DNA from: Candidatus Hermodarchaeota archaeon
GTDB taxonomy: Archaea > Asgardarchaeota > Heimdallarchaeia > Hodarchaeales > Hodarchaeaceae
Direction of reading: 5' to 3'
Length of the DNA: 32,000 nucleotides
Assembly: GCA_048886185.1 (NCBI GenBank)
Contig: JBHLKY010000001.1
Coordinates: 270,001 to 302,000 of the forward strand
The position numbers were made by a program, and so were the translations under genes. The notes under the pieces are model-generated. The model did no database searches. It was not told the origin of the DNA and saw only the letters and a list, made by a program, of their open reading frames with translations. Below, in pieces: positions 3-28,960 of the stretch; within the stretch, counting starts at the first letter, position 1, and each line of letters begins with the position of its first letter.

Positions 3-3000
3 CAGTATAATAATTTATTCATTGTGCCAGCGAGTGCCACCTCCAAGGGGCAGGAATGGAATTTTACCGTGAGAGTGTTTGATGGTATTCAATGGAGTGA
101 GCTCAATGTGTCTACCACGATCACAATTGCAAATACGAACCCTGAGGTTACCATCGCTGATATTACCACGGATCCTCAAACGACTGATGATCTGGTAGCT
201 AGTTGGACTTCGAGGGATAATGATAGTGATAGTTTAACTTTTATCCTCACTTGGTATATTAATGGGATTGAAAATGCCACGTTTGCAAATAAGACGGTGA
301 TCGGAGCGGGAAACACCACCAAAGGAGAGAAGTGGTATTTCACTGTCCAGGCCTATGATGGGGAAGGATTCTCCAATGTGTTCCCATTGGCTGCGAATGT
401 CACCATCCTGAATACCGCCCCAACAGCGGATAATTTAATCATTACCACTAATCCTACGACTATTGATGATTTAGTAGCAACTTGGGATTATTTTGACATT
501 GACAATGATCCCCGAGATGATGGGCTAGCTCGGATTTGCTGGTTCAAAAATGGGGAAAACCAAACTGCATTAACTAATCAAAAAACTATTGAGGCCACTA
601 ATACCTCTAAAAATCAGGTTTGGTGGTTTACAGTCCGTGTCTTTGACGGGGAGGACTATTCTGGGCTTTATGAGTCCGCTCACATACAGGTCTTAAATAG
701 TATTCCTATGGTGGGAAATTTGGAAATTAGGATGTCAGACCCCAAGACCACAGATGAGTTAGAGGCTCAATGGGTTGCTGTTGATGATGACAACGACATC
801 CTAAGCTACACCATCAAATGGTATAGAGATGCTGTCTATCAGTCAGCTTGGGATAATGAGATCACAATTCCTGCCAGTGCCACCTCAAAAGGCGAAACCT
901 GGTATTTTACTTTGAAAATGTTTGATGGGAGCGAGTATTCCTTAGAAGAGACCCTTAGTCCTGGTGTCCTTATTCTCAATACTCTTCCTGTCGTTGAAGA
1001 CCTGGCGTTAACCCCGGATCCTCAAACGACTGATGATCTGATAGCTAGTTGGATGTCGAGGGATAATGATAGTGATAGTTTAACTTTTATCGTTACCTGG
1101 TATGTCAATGGGATTGAAAATGCCACGTTTGCGAATAAAACGGTGATCGGGGCGGGAAATACTACCAAAGGGGAGGAATGGTATTTTAGTGTCCAAGCAT
1201 ACGATGGAGAAGGATTCTCCAATGTGTTCTCACTGGCTGCGAATGTCACCATTCTGAATACCGCTCCCACAGCGAGTAATTTGATGATTACTACTAATCC
1301 CACCACGCTTGATGACTTAGTTGCTGCTTGGGATTATTTCGATGTAGACAACGATCCCCGAGATGATACGCTAGCTCGGATTTGTTGGTTCAAGAATGGA
1401 TTGAATCAAAGCACTTTAGTCAATCAGAAAATCATTGGGGCAGGTAATACCTCCAAGAATCAAGTCTGGTGGTTTACTGTTCGTGTCTGTGACGGGGAGA
1501 CCCACTCGCTTAGTATCTACGAGTCCGCTCACATTTCTATTCAGAACTCTCTACCTTATAGTTCCTCCGCTCTCCCCATTCCCGTGAATCCTTCTAAGGC
1601 AAATGGCCTAGTATTGACTCTACCTGCCCTTCTTGCGGCTCTCTCAGACCCTGATCCGAGTGATGACATTGAAGTAGTCAGGATTCGCTGGTATAAGGAA
1701 GGTGTGCTGCAAGGGACGTTAAATGACTCCTTAATCGTTCCTGGAACCCGATTGACTAAAGGAGAGAGGTGGAATTATTCCATTGTGCCTTTCGATGGAG
1801 TCGGTTATGGGGTGGTGTGTGTGTCTGCGGAGATAGTCATCTTAAACTCTCGACCGACCATCATTAACACTTATTTCACGGCAACAACTGTTACCACCAT
1901 TAGCAACCTCGTGATCAGCTATCAAGCGGAGGATGCCGATGGGGACCCTATTATTGTCTCAGGGGTCCGCTGGTATCGGTATGATGCAGGGATTCCTGGG
2001 TGGGTGTACAATGCCACCTATGATGATTATGTGAGTCTCCCCGCTATAGCCACTACCAAGGGAGAGAGCTGGAAATATGAACTTGAAGTCTCTGATGGGA
2101 CTGATCCATCCGTTTGGAGAGAGGCGGCGAAAGAGGCGGATATTATCAACAGTCAGCCTCGCGTTGATCCCTTCAGTATCATACTGATAGGAGGTATGAC
2201 TACCTCTGAGCCTTTACAGGTGAGTTATGCCTGGTATGACGATGATCCTGGGGATAGTAATACCCAGACGATTATTACCTGGGAGAACAGTGGGGACTAT
2301 CTTGTCGATACCTATAGCACGACGTTGTCGGCGGATGAAACCATGGCGGGTGAGCGCTGGTGGGTGACGATCACTCCCTCTGATGGTGAGGACTATGGCG
2401 ATTCCGTCAACAGTAAGCGTTATGGTATAAGTATCATCATTGGTAACACTCCTCCCAGTCTCCTGCCAGATGACATTGTGATTAATGGGGAGTTTAATGG
2501 CACCGAATATCAAGGGACGAGTTTTGGCACCGTCTTCAATCTCAATCTTCATTATACGGCATTTGATCTTGATGGGGCTCAAGGGGTTCCAGCGTATGGC
2601 TTATCTCTCGTTGATGGTTTCGCGGTGGGATCCGAATATCGGTGGTATCGCAATCGTTCAGGTACCATAACTCTAATTTCAGCACTAAATGATGAAACAA
2701 CTGTTCCCTTCTATTATACTCAAAAAGGGGATGGTTGGTGGGTTCAAGTGCGTCCTCGAGATTTTTATGGAGATTTTGGCGTTCCTCAAAATTCTACTCA
2801 AATTACTATTGGGAATACCGCACCTCAAATAATTGGATTACACTGGGTACGAGTCACCTATTATACAACCAATAACTTGGTGTTTTATTATACGTTCTTT
2901 GACTATGATACTAAGGATATCCAACGAGGAGTTTTTATCCGCTGGTATCGGAATGGTACTTATTTACCAGGATTTAATAACAATACAGCGATTGCCTCTC

Positions 3001-23058: not shown

Positions 23059-24213
23059 TTAGCCCCATCGGTTATTTAGAAGATTTTCCTGAAACATTTT
23101 AATTAATTTCTCGTAATTCTTCCCAGAAAGACGATACATCTTTTTTGTTGAGATAGGTTTATTACATCGGGAACAAATATCTGCAACACTAAGCCATTTT
23201 TCTAACTCAAGCGAATGAGCTGGATGACCACAATGAGGACAGATGACTACTTTCTTATCTGGTTCAGTGGGAAATCCATAACAAAAAATACATCGAAAGT
23301 CATCATGAGATAAATGTTGGCCAGAGGGAATAAGCTTAGTAATGATAGCTGGATTTAGTCTGTCGATACGAGTAACTGTTCTCCCTGTTTGTATTCCTGG
23401 AGCTACTGTAACAGAGTTGATACTTTCGGATCGTGGTGTTCTAGACATTTGGGGTACTGATCTTGGTTGTAATAGGCTTGCTTGATTCGTTCTTGGTTGG
23501 CTATTTGCATTGCGAGGACTAACTGAGGATGTTCTATTAACAATAAAAGATCTCCCTAATGTTTGTTGAGGTAAACGATTAACAGTCACACGACGGATTG
23601 GAACAAGAACAACCTTAAGTATATAATATTGGATCAGAAAAATAATACTAACACTAACAAAACATAATCCACTAAATTCAATAATCCTAGTTTGGATCCA
23701 AAAAAAAGCTAAACTTAAAATTATACAGAGATTATACAGAATGACAATTTTGTTGGGAACCTTCCTTCTAAAGATAAAAATTGATGGATACCTGTTTGAA
23801 TAATACTTTTGGAGGAGAAATAGGAGAAATATAAAGAATGGTAACACAAAAATAATACTAAATATGTTTAGAAAAACAAAATAATTTCCACCATTAATAA
23901 ACTCAATGTCGAGAGAGATTTCGAAGAAAGATGATCGTAGAAAATCATTTTCTCCTAAAGACGCTGTATGAGCTATCAATGTTCCCCCATATGCGATTAA
24001 CGACGGGATTCCAATAAAGATTCCCGAGGCAATTGGAGCATTATAATGCTGGAAATATCGCCATTCCTCAAGAAATTTTAAAATCAAAATTGCAGTTAAA
24101 GTAATATAAGCAATTGTAAGAGCAGTTTCTATTGGTTGATCAGTGAGTAATGTTAATAGCGTAAAAACAAACCCGACGACACAGATAGAAAGATATACAT
24201 TACGCCCGACCAA
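23059..24213 (-). CDS. Multi-pass membrane protein with C-terminal RING-variant zinc finger (putative membrane E3 ligase)
   Basis: About 6 TM helices, an R/S/P/Q-rich linker, then CIFC-x13-CPHCGHPAH-x2-E-x2-KWL-x5-CSRC (nt 23164-23292). Confidence 0.75.
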   Translation of the reverse strand: MVGRNVYLSICVVGFVFTLLTLLTDQPIETALTIAYITLTAILILKFLEEWRYFQHYNAPIASGIFIGIPSLIAYGGTLIAHTASLGENDFLRSSFFEISLDIEFINGGNYFVFLNIFSIIFVLPFFIFLLFLLQKYYSNRYPSIFIFRRKVPNKIVILYNLCIILSLAFFWIQTRIIEFSGLCFVSVSIIFLIQYYILKVVLVPIRRVTVNRLPQQTLGRSFIVNRTSSVSPRNANSQPRTNQASLLQPRSVPQMSRTPRSESINSVTVAPGIQTGRTVTRIDRLNPAIITKLIPSGQHLSHDDFRCIFCYGFPTEPDKKVVICPHCGHPAHSLELEKWLSVADICSRCNKPISTKKMYRLSGKNYEKLIKMFQENLLNNRWG

Positions 24214-24231
24214 ATACTTTTCGACCTCGAG

Positions 24232-25152
24232 TTAATTCTCATGATCATATTCTAAAAACATACTACCATTTTTCTCTGCTAGTGGAAGAAGGGTATTCAT
24301 CATCTCAGGAAGGCTCTCTAGAGGGCAATTAAGGACTTGGTAGGGTGGTTCTTCCCAGGTTTGCAAATCCTCTTTTAAACGGAATATTTTAAAGCCATAT
24401 GAACGTTTAGATATTTTTGTTGGATCAATAACTAAAGCAATAGGTGCTGTTAACTGGGAGTCTTTCGTCCTTCCAAGTTTTTGGTAGCGAACTTGAGTCT
24501 CAAAATCGGTTTGACTCATGAATACTCCATATGATGGGTGACTATGATACCAACCAAGAATAAGCTGATCATGGGTTTTCATTTTTATTTCATTATACAC
24601 TCTGACCATGGATTGAGGATCTTGGATTTGTGCATTTACCTCAGTGCCATGACCAATTGGATAGGCATCCTCGACATTTAAACATGCTAATGGAGTATCT
24701 TTTTGTTCAATTTGTCCCGTTAAAAGCCCGATTACCTCAATCCATTTACTTTGGGGTGTATTCGGATTTGCGTACTTTAAAGCATGTAAAGCAAGCTTTA
24801 TGTAAGCTTTAAGATGAATTTTAACACGAGAAGGCTTCGAGTCGGGATCTAGGTCATCAAGATTTAAGTCAACAGATTCTGTGTTTTCTTCTCGATTTTG
24901 ATTCATATTATGATTTTCATCCTTATTGAGATTCTCTGATCCGTTGGTAAAAAGCTTCTCTGTTTTTGTTTTTAATTGGGAAGGTTTAAACTGTATTTGC
25001 TTACTTAATGGATTCCAAGTATAATTATCAGGCGGGAGAGTAATGAAAGGAAATTTTAACGTAAATGATAAAGTTTGAGGGTCAAATGTTAATGAAAGAT
25101 CCCGTAGTAGTAATTCGAAAACATTTTTGGGAATTTTATTATTATTAGGCAT
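24232..25152 (-). CDS. JAB1/MPN+ (JAMM) metallo-isopeptidase, Rpn11/CSN5-like, with N-terminal extension
   Basis: EVIGLL plus GWYHSHPSYGVFMSQTD (E...HxH-x7-S-x2-D intact), TQ..YQ, ALVIDP. Confidence 0.9.
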   Translation of the reverse strand: MPNNNKIPKNVFELLLRDLSLTFDPQTLSFTLKFPFITLPPDNYTWNPLSKQIQFKPSQLKTKTEKLFTNGSENLNKDENHNMNQNREENTESVDLNLDDLDPDSKPSRVKIHLKAYIKLALHALKYANPNTPQSKWIEVIGLLTGQIEQKDTPLACLNVEDAYPIGHGTEVNAQIQDPQSMVRVYNEIKMKTHDQLILGWYHSHPSYGVFMSQTDFETQVRYQKLGRTKDSQLTAPIALVIDPTKISKRSYGFKIFRLKEDLQTWEEPPYQVLNCPLESLPEMMNTLLPLAEKNGSMFLEYDHEN

Positions 25153-25181
25153 TTTTCTAGCAACGCTCTATGTTTAGATTT

Positions 25182-25709
25182 TTACCATTTTTCAGAAGCA
25201 TATTTCTTAGTAATTTTATGGGCTTTTTTCAAGAAATTCTTGCGATCACTAAGATATTCTTGAGCTGCTTTCTTATTGAAAACATCATGAGGATTAGTAT
25301 ACGCTGTGTCAATGTTGAACATTGCTAAAATCGAATAAATTATTGTACTAATGTTTTTTGAAGGAGACCAACCGTCTGGTCTTCCCACAAGGTCGGGGTC
25401 AACAAGAGCTAGGCATATATTCCGTTTTCCTTGATATTCGTCAGGTTTTGGCCAGAAATTTGGATGCCAAATTGGAGTATGTAATCGGACAAAAGGGGGG
25501 GAATATGGGTAGTTTGATCCAAACTTAATTTCTAGTTTGAATTTGCCCTTTTCATAAGGGGTTCCTTTCGGTCCCTCAAGAAGAATTGCTAAGTGTTCTA
25601 CGCTTTTTTTTCCGCCTGGAAAGGCCTTTAGCTGCTTAATGGTTTTTTGTTTGTATAATTTTTTTAGTTGTTTATAATCATCAGCGATTCGTTTAAGTCT
25701 GATAGACAT
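25182..25709 (-). CDS. Ubiquitin-conjugating enzyme E2 (UBC fold)
   Basis: GPKGTPYEKG.F, YPYSPP, HPN motif, catalytic Cys (codon 25415-25413) in ICL, WSP. AGGTG SD. Confidence 0.92.
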   Translation of the reverse strand: MSIRLKRIADDYKQLKKLYKQKTIKQLKAFPGGKKSVEHLAILLEGPKGTPYEKGKFKLEIKFGSNYPYSPPFVRLHTPIWHPNFWPKPDEYQGKRNICLALVDPDLVGRPDGWSPSKNISTIIYSILAMFNIDTAYTNPHDVFNKKAAQEYLSDRKNFLKKAHKITKKYASEKW

Positions 25710-25725
25710 TTCTCACACCTTTTTA

Positions 25726-26970
25726 TTACTCAATTTTCAATTTAATATAGGATTGAGTGCCATCATCAAACCCCGTGACCAATATAGTCTCATAATCTCG
25801 GATTCCAGCTTCAAATATGCTCTGATTTGTATCAATTTCATTAATATCTGAATTATCTATACGAAAAACAATTGGAGGAAATTCTGGATCAATGGTGAGC
25901 TTTTTTTCTTCCGCTAATTTATTGATGATCTTTTGAATATTTGCCTTAGAATTCACTTTTATCCGATAGAGGGGGGAATGGTTATTACCACACATTGTAC
26001 AATCTGGGTTCTTAGGTTTTTCAATTTCATAGAACTTCCCAGTCAAACCATTGTATATCACATAATTTAATTGAAGTGTTCCAAGTTTTCTTTTTTCTGG
26101 AGGTGTGTGGAGATGATGAAGAATTTTAACTGCTTCTTGTGATTGTAGAGATGCCATTACACAATTGATGGTGATAACTGTTGGCTCGTGATTATCTATT
26201 ATTTGGATGATCTGATCAGTCGTAAACGGTTGTGAGCCGGGAAAATATTGTTTAAGTAGATGATTCGCATATTCTCTAATGGTGTCAACTTCATCTTGTT
26301 TGAGAATGTTCACCGGCCGATTGTAATCCTGTTCAAATTTCAATTGGCCTTTGAGTATACAATGAGCTGGTCTACGGGGATTACCTACTAAAGTGCAAGC
26401 CCCTAGCTGATCTTGTTCTCGTTCTGTTAATGGATCACACTCTAAACAAGCATTACTGAATGGCCAGACACAATAAACGTGTCCATTGAATGCTGCTGTA
26501 CCAGCATCGATCAATGGCTTTCGATTATGAATAGCTCGCCTGTTTAATTCTGACCTTGCTTCTATTGAATCTAAGCCAGCGATGTAAAGATCAGCTTCAT
26601 TATATAGATGGGGAGGTAGATCTTGAAGCGCGCAATTATGAGCCTCTACTTCAATGAAAGGATTCAATTCTTGTAAACGTTTAGCCGCATATTGTGCCTT
26701 AGATGTTCCCTCTGTGGCTCCGATGAACAGTACCTGGCGATTCAAATTAGAATATTCAATTGTATCAAGATCCACCAGGATTAATCGGCCGACTCCGACC
26801 ATTGCGAGGTTTTTTGCAACTTCCACACCGAGGCCACCAACGCCAACAATAAGAACGGTACTTTTTTTAAGGATCTCTTGTTTCCATCCAGGTAAACGGA
26901 GTTGGCGATCAAAGCGACGCTTTTCTTCTTCAGTGAACAGGTTACTGGTGAAACTTGATATTTTATTCAT
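25726..26970 (-). CDS. Ubl-activating enzyme E1 (ThiF fold with UBA2/UBA3-like catalytic Cys segment and C-terminal ubiquitin-fold-like domain)
   Basis: RFDRQ, GVGGLG, DLDTIEYSNLNRQ, Zn pairs CLEC/CTMC, catalytic GACTLVGNPRRPAHCI. Confidence 0.9.
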   Translation of the reverse strand: MNKISSFTSNLFTEEEKRRFDRQLRLPGWKQEILKKSTVLIVGVGGLGVEVAKNLAMVGVGRLILVDLDTIEYSNLNRQVLFIGATEGTSKAQYAAKRLQELNPFIEVEAHNCALQDLPPHLYNEADLYIAGLDSIEARSELNRRAIHNRKPLIDAGTAAFNGHVYCVWPFSNACLECDPLTEREQDQLGACTLVGNPRRPAHCILKGQLKFEQDYNRPVNILKQDEVDTIREYANHLLKQYFPGSQPFTTDQIIQIIDNHEPTVITINCVMASLQSQEAVKILHHLHTPPEKRKLGTLQLNYVIYNGLTGKFYEIEKPKNPDCTMCGNNHSPLYRIKVNSKANIQKIINKLAEEKKLTIDPEFPPIVFRIDNSDINEIDTNQSIFEAGIRDYETILVTGFDDGTQSYIKLKIE

Positions 26971-26983
26971 ATTTTTTCAACTA

Positions 26984-27346
26984 CTAATTTATTGATCCAG
27001 CTGTTGAAACTGGGATAATCAAACATTCAAGTCCATCTTCAATATCATAATTCGAGAGAACATCATCTGCATCTAAGGTTCTTCCACTTATGGATATATG
27101 GAAGTCTTGTGGATCAAGACCGAAGATTCCTCCAAGCGTTTCTTTTAAATCTGAGACCCCCATCTCAGGATCGATTGTGAGTTTTTCAAGTTTCTCTCCA
27201 GGCCCAATTGTGGATCGAAAGAATAAACTAACGCGAGAATCTTTTGGGATTTTACTTGTAGGCACTTTTGTCGTCACTACAGGAGTTTCTGAGTTCTTCT
27301 TTTCTTCTTCAATTTCCAGGTCATCAAAATCTTCATTTTCAGACAT
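26984..27346 (-). CDS. Ubiquitin-like protein 2 (acidic N-tail; C-terminal STAG masked by SIN)
   Basis: Beta-grasp pattern FFRST...SGRTLD...LSNYDIEDG..LIIP aligns by eye to ubiquitin. The start is moved to 27346 because of a GGAGA SD and collinearity with the Ubl1 N-terminus. Confidence 0.85.
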   Translation of the reverse strand: MSENEDFDDLEIEEEKKNSETPVVTTKVPTSKIPKDSRVSLFFRSTIGPGEKLEKLTIDPEMGVSDLKETLGGIFGLDPQDFHISISGRTLDADDVLSNYDIEDGLECLIIPVSTAGSIN

Positions 27347-27522
27347 TAAGCAATTCTCCATTCTGATTAAAAGCATCCAAATTATCAATTCATCTTCAAT
27401 ATGAAAAACATTGTTTTTTGAATCTTCTTTTGTTTGCAAATAATCTTCTGAATACGTCAATTTAATTATTCCCTTTTATCTCATAGGTACAAAATTGATG
27501 TGATTTGATGATGGAAATTGAT

Positions 27523-27726
27523 TCAAATCAAAATCTCCCCTAAGATAGACTCTTTTCCTGATTGAAGAAGCCAAAGATTAGCTTGAATATAATACTCAAT
27601 TGACGCTAGTAACAAATTTAAATCGCTTTTGCAGTCTTTATGTTCGCTAAGAGCCCTTTTTGCTTTCTCTCGCTCAACCATGGCAAAAACAATTGTTTCA
27701 ATAATACTAGCTCGAACCTCTTTCAA
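27523..27726 (-). CDS. Possible small helical hypothetical protein between the two Ubls
   Basis: 67-codon frame with a TTG start only, no recognisable motif, same strand as the operon. Confidence 0.25.
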   Translation of the reverse strand: MKEVRASIIETIVFAMVEREKAKRALSEHKDCKSDLNLLLASIEYYIQANLWLLQSGKESILGEILI

Positions 27727-27805
27727 TAAAAAGCCATCCTGAGAAGATAAAAAGAAGGGGAGTTCTTTCTTTTTATTCTAAAAAGTTGAATAATATGGAA
27801 AAAAC

Positions 27806-28153
27806 TCATCCAGCCGTACTGTGAGGGATCAAAAGAATTTCATCGCCGTTATCGACACCATAATCACCTAAAGGTGCTGACTCATCTAGAGTCCGACCGG
27901 CGTGGCTTAGATGAAAATCATCTGGATTTAACCCAAAGATGTTAGCCAAGGTGTCTCTGACGTCTCTAACAGGAGTGTTTTCTCCTACAGAAATTTTTTC
28001 AGTACGTTCAGGCCCAACGGTGGATTTGAAGAAAATATTCTTCTTAGGACCTGCAGATACTCCTGATACTGGAGTTTTCGATTGGGCGGGAGTTTTGGAT
28101 TTAATTCTGGTTTTTTCTTCTAAATCAAAGTCCAAATCTTCAAAATCTGACAT
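27806..28153 (-). CDS. Ubiquitin-like protein 1 (acidic N-tail; free C-terminal STAG)
   Basis: IFFKST...AGRTLD...LGDYGVDNGD.ILLIP; ends HSTAG-stop. AGGTGA SD. Confidence 0.88.
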   Translation of the reverse strand: MSDFEDLDFDLEEKTRIKSKTPAQSKTPVSGVSAGPKKNIFFKSTVGPERTEKISVGENTPVRDVRDTLANIFGLNPDDFHLSHAGRTLDESAPLGDYGVDNGDEILLIPHSTAG

Positions 28154-28177
28154 TTTTTTATCACCTTATTCTTTTGT

Positions 28178-28273
28178 ATGAGTTTTATTTTGTATATGAA
28201 ACTCATGTAAGATACGTACCTTACGTATTTATAAAACTTACGGAATATACGTAACACCCGAAAAATATATAAG
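28178..28273. promoter_or_regulatory. Divergent promoter with four TACGTA-type boxes, TATA elements and an 8-bp inverted repeat
   Basis: TACGTA at 28213, 28222 and 28248; TACGGA at 28239; palindromic TTTATAAA at 28228-28235; A-rich BRE-like run plus TATATAAG at 28266-28273; ATGAGTTT-13-AAACTCAT at 28178-28206. Confidence 0.65.
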
Positions 28274-28304
28274 GGTGAAAGTAATATTTTCCATCAAAGA
28301 GATT

Positions 28305-28724
28305 ATGAAAGAAGATGAGGTTGACTTATTGTCAGAAAGTGCCCAAAATACCAAAATTTCTAGTAAGGCGTGGGAACTTTTACGATGGGCAAAATTTGAG
28401 CTTGATGCAAAATCTTACAGTGATGTAATTGTTTTATTAAACAAGAAAATTAATAACCGGTCGAAAAGTATGGAAAAGGCATTAGAAAACTTCGATGAGG
28501 AACGACATAGGATCAAAGTAAAAACACCCGGTAATGATGAAGAACAAAGCATTTTCTTAGAAAAACCTAAAACAATCTTATTAAGACCCGAAGCTCGAAA
28601 GATTCTCAATCGATTAAAATTAGAAAGCAATAAACCAGCATATACATTTTCGGATGGAATTGAATTTATAATAAAAGGAAATAAAGAAATCTGGAACGCT
28701 ATTCCTGATCGTTTGAAGAAATAA
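28305..28724 (+). CDS. Tandem ribbon-helix-helix-like DNA-binding protein
   Basis: Two similar units, NTKISSKAWELLRWAK..AKSYSDVIVLL and KTILLRPEARKILNRLK..AYTFSDGIEFII, resemble the archaeal RHH/VapB-type pattern TI.IS...Y..L...K...SFSDVI. The ATG at 28305 is preferred over the GTG at 28275 because of the TATA position. Confidence 0.55.
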   Translation: MKEDEVDLLSESAQNTKISSKAWELLRWAKFELDAKSYSDVIVLLNKKINNRSKSMEKALENFDEERHRIKVKTPGNDEEQSIFLEKPKTILLRPEARKILNRLKLESNKPAYTFSDGIEFIIKGNKEIWNAIPDRLKK

Positions 28725-28738
28725 AAGGATTAATTTAA

Positions 28739-28960
28739 TTGTGTGGTATTACCGTGTCAGAGACAGATTTAGAGGTCATTTTTGATTTAATTGCACGAAA
28801 TCCCCCAATATTCGCAGTTATTGGTGGTATCAGCCTCGTTCTTCTTGGAGGAATACTAGAAATTGAAGCTCTGGTTTCTTCTGGTTGGAGTGCTCTGGTG
28901 ACTGGCGCTTTTCTCCAAGTAGGCTGGATTGTAATGATAAACTCTAGAAGAAAACGTTGA
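28739..28960 (+). CDS. Small two-TM membrane protein
   Basis: Two hydrophobic helices and a basic C-terminus (RRKR); 14 bp after the RHH gene. Confidence 0.55.
   Translation: MCGITVSETDLEVIFDLIARNPPIFAVIGGISLVLLGGILEIEALVSSGWSALVTGAFLQVGWIVMINSRRKR

Follow-up and report, generated by a model that had tools for sequence, protein, structure and literature searches.

We observed an array of six phased 6-bp boxes between an operon for a ubiquitin-like (Ubl) protein system and a divergently oriented gene for a tandem ribbon-helix-helix (RHH) protein in a 32,000-nucleotide stretch of DNA from a Candidatus Hermodarchaeota archaeon (positions 270,001 to 302,000 of contig JBHLKY010000001.1, assembly GCA_048886185.1; this whole stretch is called the window below, and positions are counted from its first letter). 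The boxes are not a chance occurrence, and the genomic linkage between the presumed regulator and its target operon is conserved. The RHH protein is probably a local, autoregulated repressor similar to the viral protein AvtR, acting on the divergent Ubl-E1-E2-JAB-RING operon and on its own gene.

A phased box array found once in the genome

The six boxes form two arrays, each with a 9-bp period, on the two sides of a palindromic TATA box (TATA1, TTTATAAA, 28228-28235, assigned to the Ubl operon on the minus strand). The left array, which we call O1 (a putative operator, 28204-28227), consists of B1 (CATGTA, 28204-28209, 9 bp before B2), B2 (TACGTA, 28213-28218) and B3 (TACGTA, 28222-28227). 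To the right, after TATA1 and the trinucleotide ACT, come B4 (TACGGA, 28239-28244; TACGAA in orthologues), B5 (TACGTA, 28248-28253; YMCGTA in orthologues) and B6 (CCCGAA, 28257-28262), all three given on the plus strand. Together with their spacers they make up the putative operator O2 (28237-28263), a nearly invariant block of 26-27 bp, in which B4 and B5 are the left and right halves of an inverted repeat, TTACG-N7-CGTAA. The central CG or TG steps of the boxes fall at 28206, 28215 and 28224 in the left array and at 28241, 28250 and 28259 in the right one. Directly after B6 is a second TATA box (TATA2, ATATATAA, 28265-28272, plus strand), which we propose as that of the RHH gene.

A sequence-only reading of the window had described two pairs of boxes, each with a 9-bp period, offset by 26 bp and enclosing a palindromic TATA box; all of this matches the sequence at the positions given above. 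The four boxes it listed do exist, but the array has six, and the RHH gene has a TATA box of its own.

Occurrences of TACGTANNNTACGTA, the composite TACGTA-N3-TACGTA pattern, were counted with at most one mismatch: there are two in the window, both at the array, against 0.02 expected from 100 shuffles (none of the shuffles reached two occurrences). The host genome (4.84 Mb, 35% GC, 75 contigs) contains the exact TACGTA-N3-TACGTA pattern once and TTACG-N7-CGTAA once, both at the array, and a position weight matrix of the conserved 22-bp block scores 35.2 bits at the array versus 18.6 bits at the next best site in the genome. Patterns of phased boxes loosened further gave no second intergenic site in the genome either. 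A wider regulon was therefore rejected, as none of the exact, matrix or loosened searches found a second site; because the array is unique in the genome, the regulator would be local and dedicated, in line with the dedicated regulator that the sequence-only reading had proposed.

Two other explanations of the conserved region were tried and rejected. A cis-acting RNA was dropped: a search of 27900-28500 against Rfam gave no relevant match, only one small-RNA hit below threshold (E = 0.23), and the predicted RNA fold of 28196-28275 is ordinary (z = -1.5). O2 is not coding sequence: the stop-to-stop frame upstream of the RHH gene spans 174 codons here and is closed in relatives (126-163), and the intergenic alignment contains indels of lengths not divisible by three.

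Conservation of the array in orthologous loci

The intergenic region was collected from 21 loci (20 distinct versions), which come from genome contigs, from assemblies encoding identical homologues, from the genome of one relative and from metagenome records retrieved by scanning for the O2 pattern. The boxes differ in how well they are kept. B2 (TACGTA), B4 (TACGRA) and the CGTA of B5 are found in all 20 versions, and B6 is CCCGAA in 18 of them, its CG step following that of B5 by 9 bp. B1 is CATGTA in 14 versions and fits YAYG in 15, and B3, the least conserved of the six, is TACGTA in three versions and fits YAYG in 14. A TATA-like sequence is found at TATA1 in every version, with a gap of 8-12 bp between B3 and B4, and at TATA2 in 19 out of 20 (it is lost only at locus L022, where the RHH gene no longer adjoins). 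Boxes conserved in orthologous promoters, as the earlier description implied, are thus found for three of the four boxes that it listed (20/20 versions each), whereas the one at 28222-28227 is variable.

The constraint on O2 is strong: the 26-bp block has an identity of 0.93 over all pairs, versus 0.46 at the 4-fold degenerate sites of Ubl1 (which are saturated), and the two spacers between its boxes, 'ata' and 'aca', are invariant across the 15 loci that were tabulated. Eight exact O2 matches were found in 241 million metagenome records; six of these lie in Ubl1-RHH intergenic regions, and the other two are unrelated palindromes, consistent with chance. The array can also be followed into more distant loci. 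For example, a locus whose protein is 53% identical (L017) has GGTACGTGTA, then a TATA box, then TACACGTACC-TTACGAAAA, so that the 9-bp and 26-bp spacings are retained, and a locus whose protein is 39% identical (L019) has a diverged yet recognisable O2.

The spacer between the RHH gene and Ubl1 in family f2 (L033; G070:C342, 1333-1491) contains CAAGTACGC-CAAGTACAC just upstream of the Ubl TATA box. This is a direct repeat with the same 9-bp period and a different core (GTAC), and the different core suggests that binding specificity may have co-diverged.

Linkage between the RHH gene and Ubl1

In 12 out of 13 genome loci for which upstream sequence is available, and in six metagenome loci, the RHH gene and Ubl1 are arranged divergently; the same arrangement is seen in L017, L019 and L033, and the two genes are adjacent in families f1 and f2 as well as on two unplaced contigs. 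We surveyed 83 genomes of the class for both genes. The RHH gene is single-copy in the genome of the window and is present in 18 of the genus's 21 other genomes; Ubl1 is lacking in exactly the three that also lack the RHH gene. It is found in both f2 genomes and is absent from families f3, f5 and f7, where Ubl1 is also absent. The earlier suggestion of a regulator dedicated to the Ubl system is supported, at the level of sequence comparison, by the uniqueness of the array, by synteny and by this co-occurrence.

The two genes are separated in one case, the metagenome-assembled genome (MAG) G001. On its short Ubl1 contig (L022), O1, TATA1 and O2 are kept as far as CCCGAAA, after which the sequence diverges and both TATA2 and the RHH gene are lost; TATA1 is the only TATA box left upstream of Ubl1, and B6 is kept. 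The RHH gene is on another short contig (L008) together with a small open reading frame (ORF) for a protein with two transmembrane (TM) segments, and its upstream region consists of a TATA box followed by CCTACGTAACTCATG. Provided that both contigs are genuine, the array goes with the Ubl promoter, and at its own promoter the RHH gene has kept a similar box. The split, with its break exactly after the CCCGAAA of O2, may be a natural rearrangement or an artefact of MAG assembly or binning.

The Ubl operon of family f6 ends with a distant tandem-RHH ORF of 160 amino acids (aa). At locus L031 (G048:C22) this gene (1990-2472, minus strand) overlaps the end of the TM-RING gene and is followed by an ORF for a basic, Lys/Pro-rich protein of 216 aa (1343-1993, minus strand). 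The region upstream of the f6 Ubl1 gene has an imperfect palindrome (GTTGTG..CATG / CATG..CACAAC) and no TACGTA boxes.

Some irregularities in this collection appear to arise from assembly. The apparent truncation of the RHH gene at L016 is caused by a scaffold gap of Ns. Two contigs of one genome, L002/L006 and the matching Ubl1 contig of G066, end beside O1 in the Ubl1-RHH spacer, which looks like an assembly break inside the spacer.

Family and predicted fold of the RHH protein

The RHH gene (28329-28724, plus strand) encodes 131 aa when read from TTG 28329; in-frame alternative starts are ATG 28305 and GTG 28275. The gene probably starts at TTG 28329, because most homologues begin eight residues past ATG 28305 (that is, at the equivalent of 28329) and because a Shine-Dalgarno-like GAGGT (28317-28321, plus strand), 7 nt before TTG 28329, is kept in orthologous loci as GAGGT or AGAGG. 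Residue numbers below refer to the 139-aa reading from 28305. The family is narrow: it forms 49 clusters at 90% identity, the named ones being from Hodarchaeota, Heimdallarchaeota or Promethearchaeota, and has only 18 representatives among 1.8 billion clusters at 50% identity.

An AlphaFold2 (AF2) model built from an alignment of 44 sequences has a mean predicted local distance difference test score (pLDDT) of 84 and a predicted template modelling score (pTM) of 0.77. It contains two strand-helix-helix units (strand 14-18, helices 20-33 and 38-47; strand 89-93, helices 95-108 and 115-124), with block pLDDT values of 88-97, so that unit 1 covers about residues 14-47 and unit 2 about residues 89-124, with a linker between them. 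This bears out the claim that the divergent gene encodes two RHH-like units in one chain. The strands at 14-18 and 89-93 are the only ones that DSSP assigns in the model and so pair with each other; at the level of the model, they form one antiparallel sheet, giving a predicted intramolecular pseudo-dimer.

A fold search independent of Foldseek ranked PDB chain 9f0x_E of the F relaxosome at the top (Z = 5.9, root-mean-square deviation 4.1 A over 100 residues, both units covered); from its length, this chain is presumably one of the TraY molecules. DndE and AvtR (Z = 4.0, 79 residues), like TraY single-chain RHH proteins, follow, and ordinary RHH proteins occupy lower ranks: NikR, MazE, TraM, CdbA, Arc, single-chain Arc, PutA, ParD, SvtR and AmrZ. 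Foldseek placed F relaxosome chains (presumably TraY), AcaB, AvtR and DndE in its top rows, all below threshold. The best PDB matches are therefore single-chain or ordinary RHH proteins, as would be expected if the RHH fold proposed by the sequence-only reading is correct.

Sequence profiles point in the same direction for the first unit, which is matched by the Pfam family PF02697 (VAPB_antitox, an RHH family) in 42 out of 44 relatives at E <=0.1 (best 5e-07); several relatives carry a precomputed PF02697 annotation. The Pfam TraY family gave no match for the RHH family at E <=0.1, and a profile search of PDB sequences with the family returned only spurious matches to coiled-coil or designed-repeat proteins. 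When the N-terminal and C-terminal units were compared by hhalign, the structural register was kept with an E-value of 0.01 and a probability of 4%, values at which an internal duplication is not demonstrable by sequence. A homodimer prediction with two copies of the protein gave a score of 0.00, which is no verdict and is evidence for neither side. Assignment of the protein to the RHH fold class has good support, which does not extend to homology with a particular described family; independent fusion and shared ancestry with TraY or AvtR are equally likely.

The linker contains a nearly invariant motif, FDExRHRIKxKxP (residues 63-75), which is kept even in relatives of 31-45% identity. The motif could be an extra DNA-contacting arm, or a site of modification or sensing.

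Promoter geometry and proposed mechanism

Archaeal promoters have a TATA box centred about 26 bp before the start site and a TFB-recognition element (BRE) just upstream of the TATA box. Reading TATA1 leftward places the Ubl start site near 28205, within B1, and the BRE at about 28238-28243, on B4; from the position of TATA2, the RHH start site would be near 28295 and its BRE on B6. The resulting leaders of about 50 nt (Ubl) and about 34 nt (RHH gene) are plausible because both genes have Shine-Dalgarno-like elements; that of Ubl1 is GGTGA (28161-28165, minus strand), 7 nt before the ATG, and the CAC there is kept in the alignment of orthologues. By position, the boxes flank TATA1 and abut TATA2, and we infer the start sites and the orientation of the promoters. 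The BRE assignments draw on general knowledge of archaeal promoters, because a crude genome-wide logo of the sequence preceding TATA-like octamers showed neither a BRE signal nor a peak at any position.

Archaeal repressors classically act by promoter occlusion, excluding TBP/TFB or RNA polymerase (RNAP). In the mechanism that we propose, each RHH monomer would present one two-stranded beta-sheet and read one box (YAYGWA or CG(T/A)A), and monomers would align cooperatively on boxes 9 bp apart. The invariant O2 (B4-B6, 28239-28262) would be a high-affinity nucleation site overlapping the BRE positions of both divergent promoters, while the more degenerate O1 would extend over the interval between the Ubl TATA box and start site. 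With all boxes occupied, TATA1 would be bracketed and the BRE of the RHH promoter covered, which would keep TBP, TFB and RNAP off the Ubl promoter and autorepress the RHH gene. The fold class, the array with its conservation and genomic uniqueness, and the co-occurrence and synteny of the genes are shown by the data; we infer that the protein binds DNA, as well as the stoichiometry of binding, the positions of transcription starts, the direction of regulation and the nature of the inducing signal.

Counter-evidence and alternative explanations

Several observations weigh against repression by the RHH protein as outlined above. For the promoter region, B4 and B6 stand at the expected BREs of the two divergent promoters and may owe their conservation to basal function; the invariance of the O2 spacers means a constraint that goes beyond the 6-bp boxes; and O2 can be read either as 9-bp direct repeats or as the inverted repeat TTACG-N7-CGTAA, two layouts that look the same in sequence because ACGT is self-complementary. 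For the genomic distribution, family f4 has a Ubl1 relative in 25 out of 31 genomes and no RHH gene, so that a related Ubl operon exists there without this protein, and the split in G001 comes from two short MAG contigs for which mis-binning is possible. For the fold, Foldseek found nothing in PDB at E <=0.001, the structural Z-scores (5.9, 4.2 and 4.0) are below the level that the tool deems safe alone, and the protein of the window scores 19.8 bits against PF02697, whose curated cut-off is 27.9.

The same boxes might serve activation instead: the RHH protein would be mainly an activator of the Ubl operon, or a dual regulator depending on its concentration, with binding at O2, just upstream of and overlapping the Ubl BRE, recruiting TFB/TBP to TATA1 and repression setting in only once the weaker O1 is filled. 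O2 spans approximately -34 to -57 of the inferred Ubl promoter, where established archaeal activators are also known to bind. However, B4 overlaps the expected Ubl BRE rather than preceding it, and B1-B3 cover the region from TATA1 to the start site, a typical position for a repressor. We regard this explanation as rather unlikely, and keep it because the contrast between an invariant, strong O2 and a degenerate O1 resembles AvtR, which activates at low and represses at high concentration (PMC5569661). It is also conceivable that the conserved block is a compact bidirectional promoter core (two BREs, two TATA boxes and an initiator) or the site of another factor, with the RHH protein merely a conserved neighbour that has a different role. 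B4 and B6 do coincide with the expected BRE positions, and CG(A/T)AA cores resemble the purine/A-rich BRE consensus. But such a core leaves much unexplained: B5 is invariant, as are the spacers that separate the BREs; downstream of TATA1, B2 is likewise invariant and B1 conserved; the CG steps keep strictly to a 9-bp phase; the block has no second copy in the genome; and a TACGTAAC box lies upstream of the separated RHH gene of G001. Moreover, TACGTA-type boxes were not found upstream of Ubl in one f4 genome that has the Ubl operon and no match to the RHH gene. A promoter core as the whole explanation is therefore unlikely.

Two further explanations concern the protein itself. The regulator might be a client of the Ubl system, with the basic, lysine-bearing FDExRHRIKxKxP motif of the linker as a site of Ubl conjugation or sensing; the membrane-RING pathway would then modify or remove the repressor and so exert feedback on transcription of the operon, and in the close clade the two-TM protein, if co-transcribed, might take part. 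We consider this very unlikely; if true, ubiquitin-controlled transcription, or a membrane-stress response, would have a forerunner in prokaryotes. Hardly probable at all is a toxin-antitoxin module, in which the RHH protein would be a CopG/VapB-type antitoxin, the two-TM protein its toxin and the boxes the autoregulatory operator of the pair. JGI names several relatives 'predicted CopG family antitoxin', the VAPB_antitox matches are weak but present, and the two-TM ORF closely follows the RHH gene and stays with it on the G001 contig. Yet there is no PIN, RelE or ParE-type toxin nearby and no toxin family in a Pfam scan of the neighbours; the two-TM ORF does not follow the RHH gene in more distant loci that keep the Ubl linkage; the RHH gene has a single copy and disappears along with Ubl1; and when the two genes are separated, as in G001, the operator stays with the Ubl operon. 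Repression of the operon by the RHH protein remains the explanation that we favour.

Comparison with known RHH systems

Classical RHH repressors such as Arc, Mnt, CopG, MetJ, omega and NikR insert a beta-sheet into the major groove, bind as cooperative arrays to short repeated sites at sub-helical-turn spacing and are autoregulated; Schreiter and Drennan (2007), as cited in PMC12117103, reportedly deals with such features. Many of these repressors are among the matches of the fold search. They consist of two chains, whereas in the protein of the window the two units are fused and have diverged, so its DNA-reading sheet would be intrinsically asymmetric. PF02697, the archaeal CopG-type family of putative antitoxins, resembles it in the N-terminal unit, the only one that matches; it differs as an antitoxin family, whereas no toxin partner was found beside the RHH gene of the window.

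Two single-chain RHH proteins are the closest described precedents. AvtR of Acidianus filamentous virus 6 (PDB 4hv0) is a monomeric tandem RHH protein that binds DNA as a monomer, nucleates on strong sites and spreads to degenerate ones between two promoters, represses its own gene and, depending on its concentration, activates or represses the neighbouring gp30 promoter (PMC5569661). It shares with the protein of the window the single chain with two tandem RHH units and the structural match noted above. It differs in being viral and about 100 aa long, with a short linker and another site consensus, and no sequence similarity was detected between the two; the protein of the window comes from the chromosome of a cellular Asgard archaeon, has a linker of about 40 residues with a conserved basic motif, and is linked to a Ubl operon. 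TraY of the F plasmid is a monomer with the whole RHH dimer fold in one polypeptide, and three copies of it bind side by side as a 'train' (PMC12117103). TraY (chains of PDB 9f0x-9f12) is the best structural match to our model and differs as a bacterial accessory protein of the relaxosome, acting at oriT. To our knowledge, TraY is not known to repress a divergent operon by occluding its promoter.

Autorepression by an RHH protein through a phased operator is thus well known as a kind of system, and the single-chain architecture has these two precedents. The mechanism is familiar, and the usefulness of the present case lies in its target, the Ubl conjugation operon of Hodarchaeales-type Asgard archaea: a dedicated repressor whose operator is defined, found once in the genome and strongly conserved would offer an experimental handle on this system, and the signal that releases the RHH protein would point to the physiological role of the Ubl system. 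The protein would also extend the very few natural single-chain RHH proteins (TraY and AvtR) by a chromosomal case from a cellular archaeon. Our literature searches found no paper on a regulator for the ubiquitin-like operons of Asgard archaea or Caldiarchaeum, which is not proof of absence.

Neighbouring genes and other observations

The Ubl operon (23059-28153, minus strand) was identified by Pfam matches, and its gene order is the same in orthologous loci. Read leftward, it encodes Ubl1 (27806-28153), a 67-aa ORF, Ubl2, a ThiF-type E1, a UQ_con E2, a JAB/MPN protein and a membrane protein whose C-terminal end is zinc-ribbon/RING-like in the Pfam scan.

On the other side, the two-TM ORF (28754-28960, plus strand; alternative start TTG 28739) is directly downstream of the RHH gene. 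This ORF is 67-73 aa long, has two hydrophobic segments and begins 14-50 nt after the RHH gene. It is 59-72% conserved, in the close clade only; no Pfam family matched it, and it was not present downstream of the RHH gene in more distant loci. It is possibly co-transcribed with the RHH gene.

The 67-aa ORF between Ubl1 and Ubl2 (27523-27726, minus strand) is without a Pfam match. It is 39-57% conserved in six loci of close relatives (L001, L004, L007, L016, L024 and L027), and the other relatives are negative by tblastn. The C-terminus of Ubl1 also varies among relatives: the protein ends in ...HSTAG directly before the stop codon in the window and its close relatives, and in ...STAGWN or ...STAGWR in the L012-L015 clade. 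Orthologues of Ubl1 are thus encoded in a 'mature' form in some genomes and with a two-residue cap in others.

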